A stretch of DNA of 9,779 nt from a virus (taxonomy: Duplodnaviria > Heunggongvirae > Uroviricota > Caudoviricetes): the IMG/VR virus record IMGVR_UViG_2740892231_000007. One strand, given 5' to 3'. The notes beneath the pieces are model-generated. The model made no database searches. It saw nothing but the letters and a program-made list of their open reading frames with translations, and was not told the DNA's origin. How positions within the stretch are numbered: position 1 is the first letter of the stretch; each line of letters starts with the position of its first letter. The position numbers and the translations under genes were made by a program. Of the stretch, positions 1-6,441 are shown one piece after another.

Positions 1-1242
1 ATGGCGAGAAAAACACCCCCATTAACCACGGTGCAGATCAAAGCAGCCAGACCAGCGGAAAAGGAATACACCCTACAGGACGGCGGAGGGCTTTTTCTCC
101 TGGTCAAACCGTCCGGATCAAAACTCTGGCGATTTTCCTACTACCGGCCATCGGACAAAAAAAGAATATTGCTGAGTTTTGGATCGCTTGATGATGTTTC
201 CCTGGCTGATGCCAGAAAACGCCGTAGCGAGTACAGAGCGTTAATCAGTGCCGGAACTGACCCGCAGGGCCATGAGAAGAAAAAACGAGAGGCAGAGGCC
301 CGAAGACAAGGGAACACGTTCGAAAATGTGGCGGCGGCATGGTACCAGGTGAAAATCAGCCAGAATCTGGCCCCCAACACGATTAAAGACATCTGGCGAT
401 CGCTGGATAAATATGTATTCCCGTTCATCGGCAACACCCCAATAGACACCCTGACCGCTCGCAGGTTCGTTGAGGTGCTTACCCCCATCAAGGAGCGCGG
501 CAACCTGGAAACACTCAAACGGGTTTTACAGCGCGTTAATGAGGTAATGGATTACGCCGCCAACAGTGGGCTGATTGATGCCAATCCGGCTATGAATGTG
601 CGTAAGGCGTTCCCCTCCCCTGTAAAAAAACATATGCCAACAATCCGCCCCGAACAGTTGCCGGAGCTTATGCAGGCTTTATCAGTATCGGCAACAGAAC
701 GGCAGACCAGATTACTGATTGAATGGCAGTTACTGACCGTAACCCGTCCCGCCGAAGCGTCATCAACGCGGTGGGATGAAATCGACCTGGACGCGCAACG
801 CTGGACGATACCCGCCGGACGCATGAAGATGCGCAGGGATCACGTTATCCCACTTTCCGGTCAGGCTATGGCGGTGCTGGAGGCCATGAAACCAATCAGC
901 CACCACCGCGATTATGTTTTCCCGAGTCTGAAAGACCCACGGCAGCCAATGAACAGCCAGACAGCAAACGCAGCATTACGACGCATGGGGTTCGCTGGCG
1001 TGCTGGTGTCTCATGGATTACGCGCCATATTCAGTACAGCAGCGAACGAGGAAGGATTCGAGCCGGACGTAATCGAGGCCGCACTTGCCCACGTCGACAC
1101 TAACGAAGTGAGACGGGCATACAACCGGAGCAACTACATAGAAAAACGCGTGGTGCTTATGCGCTGGTGGGGCGAATTTGTCGAGGCTGCGGCGACGGGC
1201 GTAACCCTCGCCAGTGGTAAAAGGGGTATCCGAGCCGTTTAG
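1..1242 (+). CDS. int: P4-type tyrosine integrase (site-specific recombinase)
   Basis: 413-aa ORF starting at ATG at position 1. N-terminus (KEYTLQDGGGLFLLVKPSGSKLWRFSYY) matches the N-terminal arm domain of P4-like integrases as recalled. C-terminal half carries tyrosine-recombinase motifs readable in the translation: AGRMKMRRDHVIPLS, HGLRA, and RRAYNRSNY with the candidate nucleophile Tyr. Family assignment is from memory, not a search. Confidence 0.9.
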   Translation: MARKTPPLTTVQIKAARPAEKEYTLQDGGGLFLLVKPSGSKLWRFSYYRPSDKKRILLSFGSLDDVSLADARKRRSEYRALISAGTDPQGHEKKKREAEARRQGNTFENVAAAWYQVKISQNLAPNTIKDIWRSLDKYVFPFIGNTPIDTLTARRFVEVLTPIKERGNLETLKRVLQRVNEVMDYAANSGLIDANPAMNVRKAFPSPVKKHMPTIRPEQLPELMQALSVSATERQTRLLIEWQLLTVTRPAEASSTRWDEIDLDAQRWTIPAGRMKMRRDHVIPLSGQAMAVLEAMKPISHHRDYVFPSLKDPRQPMNSQTANAALRRMGFAGVLVSHGLRAIFSTAANEEGFEPDVIEAALAHVDTNEVRRAYNRSNYIEKRVVLMRWWGEFVEAAATGVTLASGKRGIRAV

Positions 1243-1289
1243 CTGTACAGAAAACCAGTAAAAACTACGAAAACCATGTAAAACCGTCG

Positions 1290-1295
1290 TATAAT
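1290..1295 (+). promoter_or_regulatory. Candidate sigma70 -10 element (TATAAT) with upstream direct repeats AAAACCAGTAAAA (1251-1263) and AAAACCATGTAAAA (1270-1283)
   Basis: Perfect TATAAT hexamer at 1290-1295, about 25 bp upstream of the 1320 ORF. No convincing -35 hexamer; two near-identical 13-14-bp direct repeats occupy the -35 region, suggesting factor-dependent control. Confidence 0.35.
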
Positions 1296-1319
1296 TGCAT
1301 CAAATTTAACGACAAGGCC

Positions 1320-1571
1320 GTGAAACATGAAACCGTTAAGATGCAAAAAAATTTCAGATGCAATTGCGACGGGCTGCAACTGGCCCTGATGGTTCAGCAT
1401 GAATTTTGGTCAACCTACGATCCGGAGGACAGAACGACGGCCCCATCAAAAAAACAGGTAGTAGATTTCCTGGTATCCCGTGGGGCATCCAGGAATATGG
1501 CTGAAAGTATCGACAGGGTAGTTCGTCCGGCAACCATGAAGACCGGAGGCAGGCCAAAAAAATGGCGGTAA
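1320..1571 (+). CDS. Hypothetical small protein (83 aa on the ORF track; start uncertain, GTG at 1320 or ATG at 1341)
   Basis: Open frame between int and alpA, ending 10 nt before a strong intrinsic terminator. C-terminus is basic (MKTGGRPKKWR). No strong RBS before either candidate start, so a non-coding RNA is not excluded. No family recognised. Confidence 0.35.
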   Translation: MKHETVKMQKNFRCNCDGLQLALMVQHEFWSTYDPEDRTTAPSKKQVVDFLVSRGASRNMAESIDRVVRPATMKTGGRPKKWR

Positions 1572-1581
1572 CAATCCTCAA

Positions 1582-1606
1582 AGCGGCAGAAATGCCGCTT
1601 TTTTTA
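1582..1606 (+). terminator. Rho-independent terminator
   Basis: Perfect 7-bp stem AGCGGCA / TGCCGCT with GAAA loop, followed by a T7 run (1600-1606), immediately after the stop of the 1320-1571 ORF. Confidence 0.75.
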
Positions 1607-1703
1607 TAAATCCCTTTCAAATCACCAACATAAAAAACGATTCTAACCGTTTAAAAACGGTGGGAACTGTTTTTACCCATATCCGATGATTTACCGTATT
1701 TGT

Positions 1704-1720
1704 CACCGGAATACACCGGA
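1704..1720 (+). promoter_or_regulatory. Direct repeat CACCGGA x2 at 10-bp spacing upstream of alpA
   Basis: CACCGGA at 1704-1710 and 1714-1720, about 20-35 bp upstream of the alpA ATG. A 6-bp-stem palindrome ACCGTT-TAAA-AACGGT lies at 1646-1661. Candidate promoter or operator elements; function unverified. Confidence 0.25.
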
Positions 1721-1738
1721 TTCACAAGGTAAATCACG

Positions 1739-1945
1739 ATGGAAGCAATCAAAAAAGTCATCTTTCGCCAGGAAGTAAAAAAACTTATCCACATCAAGGC
1801 AGACAGCACGCTTCAAAGCATGATCAACGCCGGAGAATTTCCGCAGGGTTTTCGCGTTGGTTTACGCCGTCGCGGATGGTATGAGGAAGACGTAATCGCA
1901 TGGATGAAAGAACGTGAGCAGGAAGCACGCGGAACGGCTGCGTAA
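1739..1945 (+). CDS. alpA: AlpA-family (prophage CP4-57-type) transcriptional regulator / excisionase-like HTH protein
   Basis: 68-aa ORF with AAGGT RBS 8 nt upstream of the ATG. The segment KKLIHIKADSTLQSMINAGEFPQGFRVGLRRRGWYEEDVIAWMKE fits the AlpA/Vis-type HTH pattern as recalled. Position immediately downstream of a P4-type int in the same orientation is typical. Confidence 0.8.
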   Translation: MEAIKKVIFRQEVKKLIHIKADSTLQSMINAGEFPQGFRVGLRRRGWYEEDVIAWMKEREQEARGTAA

Positions 1946-2262
1946 TGGTGTGAGGCATAACACGATGAACATAACAAAAAGCGCCCCGTTGCCGGAACGC
2001 CCTTGTGAACAATTAACCTGCTGCGCCTTATGTGTATGTGATCCCAAACATAAGCACGGGAATGATAGCCGCTATCAGGCTGGTGGGCAATGTAATTACC
2101 CTTTGGGTTCTATGCCGCGTTGCTGTAATTCTTTGCGGATTATTCGCTTTATCCAGGCAGCAAGAGAATCATCGCCGTCATGTTGTTGTGCCTTTTCCAT
2201 CTTTTCCCGTAAGTCAGGATCTAAACGGAACTGGAACGGAGGATTACCACGCCTTTCGTTTT

Positions 2263-2316
2263 TGTGTATTGACACGTTAATTACACCTCATGTAATGTAT
2301 TTATGTGTATTGACAC
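2263..2316 (+). promoter_or_regulatory. Two copies of 13-bp direct repeat TGTGTATTGACAC (2263-2275, 2304-2316), 41 bp apart, with embedded TTGACA
   Basis: Exact 13-bp repeat about four helical turns apart. The first copy contains TTGACA (2269-2274) followed after 16 nt by TGTAAT (2291-2296), a plausible rightward sigma70 promoter. Each copy is followed by a TTACAC motif. Confidence 0.35.
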
Positions 2317-2494
2317 ATTACACACAATCAACACAAAAAGCAAAGCCCGCTGGCGCTATGAACACCAACGGGCTTCTAACCAAACCATTAATTGAGGTAA
2401 CGATTATGGCTATAAAAGAGCATAGCTTACTCTTTATACACACACAAACGCCCCGGAAACAGAATAATCCGTTTCATAGTTCGGTTTTGTGCAC

Positions 2495-2722
2495 TCATCC
2501 TGGCGGTCGGTTTTTGCCGGATTTAAGCCGCCGTGGGTATTTATCGACAAAATCTTCAAGGGCAAATTTTTCTGGTGGCACTAAGCGCGGCGCTGGTGGT
2601 GGTATTTTTGTTCTGGTTAGTTCTTCCTCAAGTCTGGCGCAGGCTTCTGACTGCCTTTGCCGGATGATTTCATCATCTTGCGTTTGCGTGTCTTGTATTG
2701 GTGATAGTGTGTTGTTGGTCAT
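2495..2722 (-). CDS. Hypothetical protein (75 aa), second gene of the leftward unit
   Basis: Minus-strand ORF 57 nt downstream of the RHH gene, with an AGGG RBS-like motif about 7 nt before the ATG. Translation is charged and Pro-rich (MTNNTLSPIQDTQTQDDEIIRQRQSEACARLEEELTRTKIPPPAP...), protein-like, whereas the overlapping plus-strand frame is Cys/Ser-rich. No family recognised. Confidence 0.45.
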   Translation of the reverse strand: MTNNTLSPIQDTQTQDDEIIRQRQSEACARLEEELTRTKIPPPAPRLVPPEKFALEDFVDKYPRRLKSGKNRPPG

Positions 2723-2779
2723 GATACTGCCCTGTAAAGCAATGCGCCGTAGTACCTCACACCACGGCGCTGATAGTGA

Positions 2780-2959
2780 TTATTCTGATTCTTTGGCCTT
2801 GCGGCGCTGGCGGCGTTTGATCTCGCCTCGCATGGCTGTAACGATAAATTGCGCAGTGCTCTCGCCTGTTTCTTTTACTTGCTCCATAGCCTCAACAACT
2901 TCATGCGGGGCGCGAGCCTGTAATTTCTGTGATTTGTTATTGATATGGTCTCTTTCCAT
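2780..2959 (-). CDS. Ribbon-helix-helix (Arc/CopG-like) DNA-binding protein, candidate repressor (59 aa)
   Basis: Not on the ORF track because it is short; found by reverse-complementing 2780-2959. ATG at 2959 with AGGGAAG RBS 5 nt upstream, TAA stop at 2780-2782. Translation: MERDHINNKSQKLQARAPHEVVEAMEQVKETGESTAQFIVTAMRGEIKRRQRRKAKESE. Pattern of short beta-strand (KLQARAP), helix (HEVVEAMEQVKE), G-x-S/T turn (TGES) and second helix (TAQFIVTAMRGEIKRR) fits the RHH fold. Its promoter overlaps palindrome P1. Confidence 0.55.
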   Translation of the reverse strand: MERDHINNKSQKLQARAPHEVVEAMEQVKETGESTAQFIVTAMRGEIKRRQRRKAKESE

Positions 2960-2979
2960 TTCTGCTTCCCTTTGTGATT

Positions 2980-3078
2980 ACTGGAATCCAGTATACACGA
3001 AAAAGACCAAAACAAAACGCTTGAAGTGGATTCCACTTAGTGATTATACTGGAATCCAGTTGAGTGTTTATCACTCAA
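2980..3078. promoter_or_regulatory. Divergent control region: three related perfect palindromes overlapping back-to-back promoters, plus a leader inverted repeat
   Basis: P1 ACTGGA-A-TCCAGT at 2980-2992; P2 AAGTGGA-T-TCCACTT at 3024-3038; P3 ACTGGA-A-TCCAGT at 3048-3060. Half-sites ACTGGA and AGTGGA differ at one base. Centre spacing is 45 and 23 bp. A TATACT -10-like hexamer overlaps P3 on the plus strand (3045-3050, with TTGAAG -35-like at 3021-3026, 18-bp spacer) and overlaps P1 on the minus strand (2990-2995). A further inverted repeat TTGAGTG-TTTAT-CACTCAA (3060-3078) lies in the rightward leader. Confidence 0.55.
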
Positions 3079-3155
3079 TGCAAACGAGGCAGAAAAGGAT
3101 TGCCGTCCTTTCGCAGCCTCTGACCACCAACGATAGCAACAGTATCGAGGTAGCT

Positions 3156-3356
3156 ATGAGAAATCATATCACACACCCGCAAGGGCGGGACCCGCACAAC
3201 CTGAATAAATACATCTGGCGTTTTATCGCCCTGAGCACGGCTAAGCCGCGCGTAATCCACATCGTGGCCACCAGCGAACAGGAAGCCCGTCGGCAATCAC
3301 CGGCTGGCTGCGTGATGGTATTCACTGCCCGTATTCGTCAGGGGGTGGACTTATGA
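3156..3356 (+). CDS. Small protein (66 aa), possibly Icd-like (host cell division inhibitor family); first gene of rightward operon
   Basis: ATG at 3156 preceded by GAGGT RBS; in frame with the C-terminal end of the long 1914-3356 frame but only this terminal part looks protein-like (MRNHITHPQGRDPHNLNKYIWRFIALSTAKPRVIHIVATSEQEARRQSPAGCVMVFTARIRQGVDL). The W.F.A ... hhhhA.SE.EARR ... F.ARI pattern resembles Icd-like proteins of P4-like prophages as recalled; low-certainty recall. Stop overlaps the next start (ATGA). Confidence 0.5.
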   Translation: MRNHITHPQGRDPHNLNKYIWRFIALSTAKPRVIHIVATSEQEARRQSPAGCVMVFTARIRQGVDL

Positions 3357-3586
3357 GCCAGGAAATCACACTACAACAGGCAGCAGAACGCGCCCACCAA
3401 ATCGAAGTTATTTGCGCACTGGCAGAGGATTACCCTGGCATGATGACCGACAGCGAATCAGGGGCAATCATCGGCTTACTTAAACGCCTTAGCGGTGAGG
3501 TCTGCGTATTCCTGAGCGATGAGCAGGAAAGAAGAACGCTTATTTCTAACGAAAAAAAATGCGGAGGGGTACACCATGTGCAATAA
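3353..3586 (+). CDS. Hypothetical small protein (77 aa)
   Basis: ATG overlaps the upstream stop (ATGA at 3353-3356), GGGGTGG RBS-like upstream. Acidic, helical-looking translation. No family recognised. Confidence 0.5.
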   Translation: MSQEITLQQAAERAHQIEVICALAEDYPGMMTDSESGAIIGLLKRLSGEVCVFLSDEQERRTLISNEKKCGGVHHVQ

Positions 3587-4043
3587 CATCCGTCCGGACG
3601 CAACCGCCGCCGCGCTCACTACGCTGATGCTCGCGCTTATTGATATTTCTGTTATTGCTGACAGGGCGCATAAGCACGCCACCAGTGAAACAGAATATGC
3701 AGGGGCTTTCGTTCCTCATTCGCTGGCGGTTATGCAACTTAGTGCTGATATGGCGCTGAATGAGGCCAAAGCCATCCTGATTGCTGATTGTGAAAATGGG
3801 GGGGGGGTTATGCGTGATGATCGTTTTAATTCCCTGAAACAGGAATTTTCCGGCGTTCCTGATGATGCGGCTGATGCGCTTTCGTCAATGCCAGAACTTA
3901 TTAGAGCGGCTTTTTTCTTACTTTCCACGAGAGAATATAAATCAACGGGGCTTGATGTACTGAATATCGCCGCCGATTATGCGGAATATGTGGCAGAGGC
4001 GCGTTACAGAAGAAAATTTCCTGAGGATGTAAGCCATGCGTGA
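3576..4043 (+). CDS. Hypothetical protein (155 aa) containing an in-frame G10 homopolymer
   Basis: Start chosen at ATG 3576 (GGAGGGG RBS 6 nt upstream) rather than the track's 3519; overlaps the upstream gene by 11 nt. A G10 run at 3798-3807 encodes Gly-Gly-Gly and is followed by an in-frame ATG at 3810. No family recognised. Confidence 0.5.
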   Translation: MCNNIRPDATAAALTTLMLALIDISVIADRAHKHATSETEYAGAFVPHSLAVMQLSADMALNEAKAILIADCENGGGVMRDDRFNSLKQEFSGVPDDAADALSSMPELIRAAFFLLSTREYKSTGLDVLNIAADYAEYVAEARYRRKFPEDVSHA

Positions 4044-4269
4044 TATTTACCACGAAACAACAGATCGCGTATTTCTTGCACTTTCTCACAGTGAAAATAT
4101 GATGGAAATATTGCGCATATGGCTTGAAACACTTGGCGACAATGAACGCGACAAACAAAAATCAAGAATTGCCACGGCATTAATAACGCTTCTTGAGCCT
4201 GTAATAAATGAGTTGCAGGAAATAGAGACATTGCACGACAGATATAACGAACAGCACACCGGAGAATAA
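4036..4269 (+). CDS. Hypothetical small protein (77 aa)
   Basis: ATG at 4036 overlaps the upstream stop by 8 nt, AGGATG RBS-like upstream. AT-rich codon usage compared with neighbours. No family recognised. Confidence 0.5.
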   Translation: MRDIYHETTDRVFLALSHSENMMEILRIWLETLGDNERDKQKSRIATALITLLEPVINELQEIETLHDRYNEQHTGE

Positions 4270-4274
4270 AAATA

Positions 4275-4574
4275 ATGAAACTTAAATATTCTGGCTTAAC
4301 TGCCAGTGGCAACACTCACCCTAAATTTACGCGCGGTGATATTTACCGCGACCAGTACGGCGGTACGGTAATGATTAAGGGCGTGGCGGGACGGTGCGTA
4401 ACTTACCGCCGTGAAGGTTACGAATATGATTGCGTGATGCCTGTTTATCAGTTCCGGCGTGATTTTTCTCTGGTACAGACCGCGCCGCATAACGTGCCCA
4501 CCAGCAACGCCAGGGCACGGGCAAACATCCAGAAGCTGAAAACAATGATTAACGGATTCAGGGGTAAAAAATGA
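4275..4574 (+). CDS. Hypothetical protein (99 aa), translationally coupled to rep
   Basis: GGAGAA RBS 8 nt upstream of ATG 4275; stop overlaps the rep start (ATGA at 4571-4574). No family recognised. Confidence 0.55.
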   Translation: MKLKYSGLTASGNTHPKFTRGDIYRDQYGGTVMIKGVAGRCVTYRREGYEYDCVMPVYQFRRDFSLVQTAPHNVPTSNARARANIQKLKTMINGFRGKK

Positions 4575-5980
4575 AACTGGCACCGAACGTAAAACGATTA
4601 CCGAAAGATAAATACACCGATGCGATTATTTTTGCGGGTATTGATGCTCATTCATTCGCAGAGCATTACATCATTGCACAGGCCAAAAAAGCAGGCGATC
4701 CAGTCCCTCCCGTTTATCTGGGGCGTTATCAGTTAAGCGAACTGGATAACCTCCAGATTGTTGATGATGGGCGATACAGGGCGACGGTGATACGCGCCGG
4801 AAATATTGAAGAGCCGCAGCTGTTAACCATCGCCACGAAACTGGCGAGCGCCGGAGTCCAGGAGGCGCGGCTACTTTCTGAAAATTTCGAATTGCTGGAG
4901 GAATGGAGCGACCAGCTTCCACGGCTTAGGGAGGCATGGGAACGCGGGGAAAGCCTGGTCATGAAAAAAATCCCCCAGCGAAAAACCAAGCTACCAATGA
5001 GCGTTGGATCTACCGGATACGACACACAGCTTGATTACGTGGTAAAGGGGATTATTCCGGCATCGTCGCTTTGCAGCATATACGGGGCGAGCGGTTCCTA
5101 TAAATCATTCCTTGCCGGATCGTGGGCGTGTCACGTTTCCACGGGCCGCCAGTGGGGAGGCCGCAGGGTGGCGCATGGCGCTGTTCTCTATGTGGTTGGT
5201 GAAGGCGGTATAGGCGTTCCGCGTCGTGTAAAAGCCTGGGAGGTTGTGCACGATGAGCAGGTGAAAAATCTGTATCTGGTAAACCGTCCCATCTTTCCGG
5301 CTGCCCCGCTTGATATTGATGAAATGGTTATCGCTGCCAGCCAGGTGGAGCGGGAAACGGGTAAACCTGTTCGCATGATTATTCTGGACACGCTGGCGCG
5401 TTGCTTTGGCGGCAATGATGAAAATGACTCCCGCGACATGGGGGGATTTATCCGTGGTTGTGACGAGCTTAAACGGCGCACAGGGGCTACGGTGCTGGTG
5501 GTTCACCATTCCGGCAAGGATGAAACAAAGGGGGCGCGTGGTTCCAGTGCATTTCGTGCATCACTGGACGCTGAATACCGGATACGCAGGGAGGACGCAG
5601 GAAGCGAAGCGCTGGTTATCTCATGCACCAAAATGAAGGACGCGGAGGAACTCAAAGAGGCTGCCTATGATTTGCGGGTGGTGGAGCTTTTTACCGACGC
5701 TGACGGGGAGTTAATCACGTCGCTGGTGGTGGTGGATAAGCCGCGTCCTCCCGTTGAACTGGAGCGCATCGAAGAGGCTGGCAACAAGACGGAGAATCAT
5801 GCTGCGCTATGGGGATGTATCCGGTCACGCACACAGCACGGCGACAAGTGCACGATCCCGCTGTTACGTGACGATATGAAAAAGCTGGGGTACGAAATGA
5901 AAAACTTCAGCCGCTGGCTACGCAAGCTGGAAAAAGACGGGGTTATTTATATCGACGGTGATGATGTAGGCCCTCTGTAA
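4571..5980 (+). CDS. rep: Replication initiator / helicase-like protein with RecA-like (AAA_25-type) ATPase core and C-terminal DNA-binding-like tail
   Basis: 469-aa ORF. P-loop-like GASGSYKS, Walker-B-like hydrophobic run ending in Asp (RMIILDTLA), and VLVVHHSGKD motif typical of RepA/DnaB-like RecA-fold replication ATPases as recalled. Basic C-terminal segment (MKKLGYEMKNFSRWLRKLEKDGVIYI) is a plausible winged-helix iteron binder. Iteron array begins 1 nt after the stop. Confidence 0.85.
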   Translation: MKLAPNVKRLPKDKYTDAIIFAGIDAHSFAEHYIIAQAKKAGDPVPPVYLGRYQLSELDNLQIVDDGRYRATVIRAGNIEEPQLLTIATKLASAGVQEARLLSENFELLEEWSDQLPRLREAWERGESLVMKKIPQRKTKLPMSVGSTGYDTQLDYVVKGIIPASSLCSIYGASGSYKSFLAGSWACHVSTGRQWGGRRVAHGAVLYVVGEGGIGVPRRVKAWEVVHDEQVKNLYLVNRPIFPAAPLDIDEMVIAASQVERETGKPVRMIILDTLARCFGGNDENDSRDMGGFIRGCDELKRRTGATVLVVHHSGKDETKGARGSSAFRASLDAEYRIRREDAGSEALVISCTKMKDAEELKEAAYDLRVVELFTDADGELITSLVVVDKPRPPVELERIEEAGNKTENHAALWGCIRSRTQHGDKCTIPLLRDDMKKLGYEMKNFSRWLRKLEKDGVIYIDGDDVGPL

Positions 5981-6192: not shown

Positions 6193-6441
6193 ATGCGCAG
6201 AGACAGAACAGAGCCGAAATATAAAGCGTTAGACATGACAGAGCACGCCTTAAAGGTGGCAATCAGGGTAATAGACCGCCACGCGGGGGAAGGATACGCG
6301 AAGGAACATCCCGACCTGATAAGCGCATTCATGACCACGGCGGCGGCAAACTTTGCCACGCTGACAGAACGGGAGATTGCCGAAGCGGAACAGGTAACAA
6401 CCATCAACGTAAAAACCGGAGAGTCAGGCGATGATACATGA
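6193..6441 (+). CDS. Hypothetical small protein (about 82 aa; start uncertain among GTG 6166, ATG 6172, ATG 6193)
   Basis: ORF overlapping the last iterons at its 5' end. ATG 6193 has a GAGGAG motif 11 nt upstream. Stop overlaps the next gene by 11 nt. No family recognised. Confidence 0.45.
   Translation: MRRDRTEPKYKALDMTEHALKVAIRVIDRHAGEGYAKEHPDLISAFMTTAAANFATLTEREIAEAEQVTTINVKTGESGDDT

Follow-up and report, generated by a model that had tools for sequence, protein, structure and literature searches.

The window analysed here, a 9,779-nt stretch of DNA taken at full length, is an Escherichia coli integrative island of about 10 kb belonging to the PICI type of phage satellite. Its gene content (Table 1), assigned from Pfam, PHROG and NCBIfam matches, agrees with the description of Gram-negative PICIs (PMC11773190): an integrase, an AlpA-type regulator and a helicase replication module lie together at a conserved site, and a full phage structural or lysis set is absent. 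The integrase, AlpA-like, Icd-like, DUF4222, RepA-type helicase, PerC and capsid-related genes are shared with the PICIs and cf-PICIs EcCIEDL933, EcCICFT073 and EcCIMP1 (PMC11773190). In contrast to those elements, the only recognisable morphogenesis gene of this island is a fusion of a ClpP-like prohead protease with a major capsid protein, and neither a terminase nor a portal could be recognised in the window. Relatives occur in E. coli chromosomes beside tRNA-Pro between yejM and yejO, or between roxA and phoQ, and the segment 3300-4300 is matched by 1107 of 5426 complete E. coli genomes. A search for promoter-like and terminator-like sites found none between about 3070 and 4700, including at the G-run described below, and the small genes of this region therefore form one operon.

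Two further features of the island deserve mention. With respect to the late module (7321-9240 and 9498-9779 of the window), related islands that share the early operon encode the major capsid protein in a separate gene, accompanied by a small terminase subunit (O26) or by a head decoration gene as well (O157); such differing sets beside a shared ORF1/ORF2 imply that late modules are swapped between satellites. Upstream of the small genes, a 480-aa ORF with a GTG start occupies 1914-3356 on the plus strand, but only its last ~90 residues match a known family (Icd-like, NF033153, phrog_6196). The same region in relatives holds several small genes, including a YlcI/YnfO-family gene on the minus strand; the ORF is probably not a single gene, and so long a stop-free stretch is unusual. 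Face-to-face promoter-like hexamers (plus strand 3021-3050, minus strand 3070-3043) are placed immediately before the Icd-like coding part, where a divergent control region for the early operon is plausible.

Table 1. Features of the island and of the ORF1-ORF2 locus, in window coordinates
Feature	Position	Strand	Support or remark
Integrase	1-1242
AlpA-like HTH gene	1739-1945
Icd-like gene	ends 3356
Early/replication operon (77-aa gene, ORF1-ORF2, 77-aa gene, DUF4222, RepA-type helicase)	3353-5980	+
Small overlapping genes	3353-3586, 3576-4043, 4036-4269	+
A8 run, 240 nt upstream of the G-run	3552-3559	+	control for homopolymer miscalling
ORF1 body, N-terminal half, residues 1-74	3576-3797	+	phrog_5146; separate RefSeq CDS; pN/pS; distant homologues
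G10 homopolymer	3798-3807	+	sequence and frames
Fused 155-aa ORF, G10 allele	3576-4043	+	phrog_2512 match over full length; 17 contigs
ATGCGTGA, ORF2 start overlapping the ORF1 TGA in G5/G8/G11 alleles (...GGGYA*)	3810-3817	+
ORF2, C-terminal half, 77 aa, MRDDRF...VSHA, stop 4041-4043	3810-4043	+	phrog_24341; RefSeq; pN/pS; homologues
Second ATGCGTGA, ORF2 stop and start of the next 77-aa gene (4036-4269)	4036-4043	+
DUF4222 gene	4275-4574	+
RepA/AAA_25 helicase	4571-5980	+
PerC	6431-6703
ClpP-protease/major-capsid fusion	7321-9240

The second of the small genes is a 155-aa ORF with ten consecutive G residues in the middle of its coding sequence. GAAAAT precedes the run (its T at 3797), and TT at 3808-3809 follows it, then an ATG at 3810-3812 in the same frame. 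A longer call from an upstream in-frame ATG, 3519-4043 (174 aa), appears in the mechanical ORF list. In this allele the run specifies Gly75-Gly77 and the first base of Val78. The initial annotation had remarked on the G10 run within the ORF and on the in-frame ATG behind it, and the sequence confirms both. It had also predicted, correctly, that a change of one G would end the frame at roughly 80 aa: a simulated G9 allele terminates after ...GGGLCVMIVLIP / ...NGGGLCVMIVLIP at 86 aa and a simulated G11 allele after ...NGGGGYA at 80 aa, and G7 and G13 are in frame again, like G10.

At ten nucleotides, the run falls within the length range prone to slippage (about 7 or more), here inside a coding region. 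No other G or C run of at least 7 occurs in the window, base composition would lead one to expect 0.012 G runs of at least 10 per 9779 nt, and this one site accounts for 107 of the 125 G/C runs of at least 8 in 1.29 Mb of related loci. Two other interpretations of the run were rejected: a minus-strand gene reading poly-Pro from C10, as off-frame and antisense substitution patterns reveal no constraint, and a G-quadruplex, as there is a single G-run only.

The two parts of the 155-aa ORF on either side of the run have separate histories. PHROGs holds three families at this locus, phrog_2512 (fused, 154 aa), phrog_5146 (the N half) and phrog_24341 (the C half). RefSeq annotates a separate gene from the ATG equivalent to 3810 in G8, G9 and G11 alleles, and ORF1 as a separate gene in those alleles is about 79-86 aa long. 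In strain GN02050 (G8), for example, RefSeq gives two genes of 79 aa and 73 aa; the first ends ...GGT TAT GCG TGA and the ATG of the second lies inside that sequence, at ATGCGTGA. Strain 10 has the same two-gene arrangement, and strain 154 has a single 144-aa CDS, fused via another indel (G8, then one T instead of two). This stop/start overlap is present in G5, G8 and G11 homologues; in the G10 allele of the window the genes are fused and the TGA of the overlap is out of frame.

Patterns of substitution, computed on length-consistent subsets, give in-frame pN/pS values of 0.33 for ORF1 and 0.35 for ORF2, against 1.3-1.9 in the other frames (1.5-1.9 for ORF1). Purifying selection acts on each half in its annotated frame. 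A HMMER search over 1.84 billion cluster representatives recovered only 49 related clusters, and most of the distant ones are stand-alone halves. Distant C-half proteins (75-77 aa) begin at query residue 79, that is, at ATG 3810, and distant N-half proteins (77-84 aa) often end ...HA*, the signature of a ATGNNTGA overlap. The exact 77-aa ORF2 product is found on at least 1000 contigs, the exact 155-aa product of the window on 17 public contigs. The 155-aa ORF is thus an in-frame fusion of two small genes and represents the less common state of the locus. Since ATGCGTGA also joins ORF2 to the next gene at 4036-4043, the overlapped arrangement is native to the operon. That next 77-aa gene and ORF2 both start with MRD; paralogy between them was considered and rejected, the proteins being without similarity.

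Searches for a function of ORF1 and ORF2 gave no match in Pfam or NCBIfam, and their PHROG families are of unknown function. Likewise, tblastn against 50,697 phage records returned no match to either protein, and a Foldseek comparison of the AF2 model of the 155-aa product (pLDDT only 63) with the PDB returned nothing below E=1. The model consists of two helical hairpins separated by a low-confidence segment, residues 76-99, which is compatible with a flexible linker between the predicted hairpins. One 844-aa protein, P0136, has 14 separate stretches that match the query, the best-scoring one against residues 97-152 in the ORF2-like half; tandem repeats of this small helical module may make up the protein.

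The G-run was also proposed, in the initial annotation, to act as a Shine-Dalgarno element for a start at 3810, and this idea is strongly backed. For alleles G7 to G11, the calculated duplex between the 20 nt leading up to ATG 3810 and the 16S 3' end has an energy of -11.1 kcal/mol, a stronger anti-Shine-Dalgarno pairing than at any other start in the operon. Related motifs of a CAGGGGG-like kind precede other starts (CAGGGGGTGG before 3353, CAGGGG before 4571), and sequences of the G_GG.G type serve as Shine-Dalgarno elements in E. coli reporters (Sharma et al., PMC4066793). The start itself has further support in the RefSeq genes of split alleles, in the contig counts given above and in the homologues that begin there. 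On these grounds G10 is likely the Shine-Dalgarno element of ORF2, and ORF2 would be initiated internally in fused alleles as well. No other base breaks up the run in 64 of 69 unique haplotypes, compared with a mean minor-allele fraction of 0.22 at ORF1 four-fold degenerate sites in the same haplotype set, and the run is therefore conserved beyond neutral expectation; this could reflect selection for mutability instead of ribosome binding.

A search of IMG/VR with the ORF2 protein, independent of the tract, located ORF2 (up to 100% identical) in a second setting, behind an unrelated gene of about 120-140 aa (...CGYQVIQGG) around position 1470-1500 (loci L104, L109-L111 and L161-L170). There the leader reads TTCAG(6-10)TAAAC-ATG, a variable run of G6-G10, and the anti-Shine-Dalgarno duplex is -11.5 to -11.7 kcal/mol. 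The same three frame relations arise: G6 leads to the ATGCGTGA overlap stop, G7 and G10 to a TAA stop, and G8 to a 218-aa fusion. Its presence behind an unrelated gene, again after a G-run, marks ORF2 as an independent module carrying its G-rich leader.

That the tract is slippage-prone, as had been suggested, is borne out by its length in homologous islands, which is not uniformly G10 but varies widely, from G5 to G11 on identical protein backgrounds (Table 2). Exact-protein look-ups, in which all but the tract is held constant, are the cleanest evidence. The 17 contigs at G10 on the window's haplotype carry its own 155-aa protein; the 41 of the O157 type include E. coli 042. The O157:H7 island between roxA and phoQ has a G7 fused allele. 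Of the 11 haplotypes that have identical flanks (260 nt each side) and at least two members, 7 are polymorphic in tract length. As a control, the nearby A-run keeps its eight A residues in 31 of 32 loci whose G-runs are G7 (5), G8 (18), G9 (7) or G10 (2), and its near-invariance in the same loci means that general homopolymer miscalling cannot explain the spread of the G-run, even if some individual calls are sequencing errors.

Table 2. Tract lengths in five sets. The 90 loci are the window, 3 RefSeq loci, 1 Shigella genome and about 85 IMG/VR contigs. Complete-genome counts are approximate (exact short queries read in identity bands, inflated by multi-copy genomes and corrected for about 236 truncated 100%-identity alignments). 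Exact-protein rows count contigs, from look-ups among 15 billion proteins; over-sampled clones (O157, O26) inflate the contig counts
Set	G5	G6	G7	G8	G9	G10	G11	G12	Other
90 loci			23	37	18	5	2		one G8+T, four interrupted runs
Metagenome contigs, mostly SPAdes/Illumina			10	27	12	1
Complete E. coli genomes			~360	~180	~170	23
Window's ORF1 haplotype, exact protein		2	60	30	437	17	2	0
O157-type haplotype, exact protein	24	70	at least 1000	912	140	41	19

An impression of the rate of change comes from pairs of loci, binned by how many differences they show across the two 1-kb flanks. Tract length differs in 2 of 11 pairs with no difference in the 2 kb of flank, in 2 of 8 pairs with 1-2 differences, in 6 of 8 pairs with 3-10 differences, and in 70% of unrelated pairs. 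Although the number of pairs is small, this comparison suggests a rate of tract change roughly 10^2.5 to 10^3 times that of a single nucleotide site. The tract would then be hypermutable, yet probably slower by orders of magnitude than classical contingency loci. Such a rate would fit ordinary slippage of a long G:C run in a host with working mismatch repair.

Taken together, these observations are best explained, with a probability that we put at roughly 0.7, by a G-rich ribosome-binding site that is prone to slippage and gives rise to a fusion/fission polymorphism, not to an ON/OFF switch. The G-run would be the ribosome-binding site of ORF2 (start 3810), placed within the last codons of ORF1 (start 3576). 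Because this putative site is a long homopolymer, its length would change by replication slippage, and because G-runs read as glycine in every frame, each length would give a viable arrangement. With G5, G8 and G11, the two genes overlap at the ATGCGTGA stop/start and would be coupled through it, probably the ancestral design. With G6 and G9 there are again two genes, ORF1 having a 9-residue alternative tail, LCVMIVLIP, that overlaps the ORF2 start. With G7 and G10, ORF1 and ORF2 form one reading frame joined through (Gly)2-3-Val; the window carries the rarer G10 allele of this fusion. The states differ in the covalent ORF1-ORF2 link via the Gly2-3-Val linker, in the C-terminal tail of ORF1 (YA, LCVMIVLIP or the whole of ORF2) and in the predicted coupling of ORF2 initiation to ORF1 termination. 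They may be near-equivalent in function or may only modulate stoichiometry.

What the data do not support is the original view of a single 155-aa gene switched off by the gain or loss of one G. ORF1 residues 1-74 and ORF2 stay intact in all three frames, and in split alleles ORF2 has its own Shine-Dalgarno sequence and ATG and is annotated as a separate gene. The predicted truncation amounts to a return to the common two-gene form. An ON/OFF switch is not supported, since no state removes a coding body and all frames are frequent. The frequencies themselves are no measure of selection, because contig counts are inflated by over-sampled clones.

True phase variation, with high-frequency switching in clonal populations and three states that differ in activity (satellite replication or helper-phage interference, for example) as a form of bet-hedging, is an unlikely alternative. 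The G5-G11 range on identical backgrounds and the second, independent G-run context before ORF2 would both fit it. So would the conservation of the uninterrupted run beyond neutral sites, but this is equally explained by a ribosome-binding role. A further point in its favour comes from E. coli 97-3250, for which two RefSeq assemblies (loci L090/L091; NZ_CP074773.1 and NZ_CP027599.1) have two homopolymer differences only over 8 kb, G10 in one and G9 in the other at the tract and A8 against A7 in an intergenic region; the accompanying A-run difference, however, points to sequencing error. Against phase variation, moreover, neither coding body is lost in any of the three common frames, 9 of 11 locus pairs whose 2-kb flanks match exactly also have the same tract, and differences accumulate over a few substitutions per 2 kb, far below the pace of classical contingency loci, albeit in a small sample.

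A related proposal, quite unlikely in our estimation, is that the tract is a selected contingency locus in which slipping modulo 3 toggles a two-protein early module among three forms: coupled and separate; separate, with ORF2 less coupled and ORF1 ending in a hydrophobic tail; and covalently fused. If this were true, clonal satellites would diversify their responses to helper phages, and the run that travels with ORF2 (G6-G10) in its second setting would reflect selection for mutability and not only ribosome binding.

It is also conceivable, though improbable, that the G10 of the window is a miscall or assembly error of G8 or G9 and that the 155-aa ORF is absent from the source strain. The only near-identical public copy, the IMG/VR locus L019, differs over 9.8 kb by one substitution, by A6 in place of A7 at 1777 and by G8 in place of G10. 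The A7 run (1777-1783) lies inside the AlpA-like HTH ORF (1739-1945), so that the A6 of L019 would frameshift the regulator; the difference reflects a sequencing error in L019 or else another site prone to slippage. Since A6 breaks an ORF that the window has intact, suspicion falls more on the L019 assembly, as the carrier of the doubtful alleles. The twice-sequenced 97-3250, with its two homopolymer differences, lends the artefact some plausibility as well: the pattern is typical of consensus errors, although real variation is also possible, and complete-genome records are unreliable to within one nucleotide at such runs. In both of these near-identical pairs the G-run and one A-run differ, and some length calls are therefore probably sequencing errors. 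Part of the one-nucleotide variation between assemblies is probably of this kind, and the true spread of lengths may be somewhat narrower than observed. For G10 itself, on the other hand, the exact 155-aa product occurs on 17 independent contigs, and finished sequences with G10 number 23 complete genomes, E. coli 042 among them.

Highly improbable is programmed recoding, in which frameshifting or RNA-polymerase slippage would yield fused and separate products from every allele and the DNA tract length would matter little; the G-run formally fits the X_XXZ_ZZN slippery pattern, an internal Shine-Dalgarno-like sequence can stimulate frameshifting, and the fused product seems as viable as the split ones. 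A recoding site, however, normally has a fixed length; this tract is not conserved in length, and each of its three frames is written into the DNA of one strain or another. No downstream stimulator was identified, G_GG.G_GG.U gave the lowest -1 frameshifting measured, 0.018% (PMC4066793), and transcriptional insertions in E. coli homopolymers occurred only in A or T runs, G/C runs being judged not slippage-prone for its RNA polymerase (PMC5574713).

Several known systems invite comparison with this locus. Poly-G/C contingency loci are known in Campylobacter jejuni, Neisseria, Haemophilus and Bordetella, with the C-run of Mycobacterium tuberculosis glpK as a further case. The present tract resembles them in being a long coding G:C run whose length varies between close isolates, presumably by slipped-strand mispairing, and sets the reading-frame relation to what lies downstream. 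In such loci two of the three frames truncate the protein (OFF), whereas here all frames keep both bodies, the downstream half has its own start, and the estimated rate is far below classical switching. The host, E. coli, is equipped with mismatch repair and has few such loci. A similar case is C. jejuni cj0031/cj0032, where the length of a poly-G tract decides between one protein and two; in that pair the functional ON state is the fusion and splitting means truncation, while the split form here is, by comparative evidence, probably ancestral and its halves are independent genes.

Translationally coupled pairs of the ATGA or ATGNNTGA type offer another comparison. In G5, G8 and G11 alleles ORF1 stops in the TGA of ATGCGTGA, overlapping the ORF2 ATG, the likely Shine-Dalgarno sequence (the G-run) lies inside the 3' end of ORF1, and the same motif recurs at 4036-4043. 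Unlike the usual pair, the Shine-Dalgarno sequence is expanded to an unstable homopolymer of 7-11 nt, and therefore the geometry of coupling, and even the separateness of the genes, varies between strains. Overall, the feature is best read as a hypermutable homopolymer located where two coupled genes meet, with a fusion/fission polymorphism as its result. No specific mention of the ORF1/ORF2 pair or of the G-run was found in the searchable literature on E. coli satellites.

The practical importance of the finding lies in annotation, and its biological interest is modest. The 155-aa "hypothetical protein" and its 154-, 79/80-, 85/86- and 77-aa relatives represent a single locus seen in several frame states. 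Unless this is recognised, pangenome and gene-family analyses of E. coli satellites will score these states as different genes, as the three families already in PHROGs illustrate. The G-run is also a sensitive marker of homopolymer miscalls in E. coli assemblies. E. coli is usually considered poor in simple-sequence variable loci, and a tract of G5-G11 carried on PICI satellites in hundreds to thousands of genomes offers a convenient natural system. It could serve to measure homopolymer slippage in a mismatch-repair-proficient host, and it could reveal the phenotype of fusing or separating two coupled small proteins in satellite-helper interactions.
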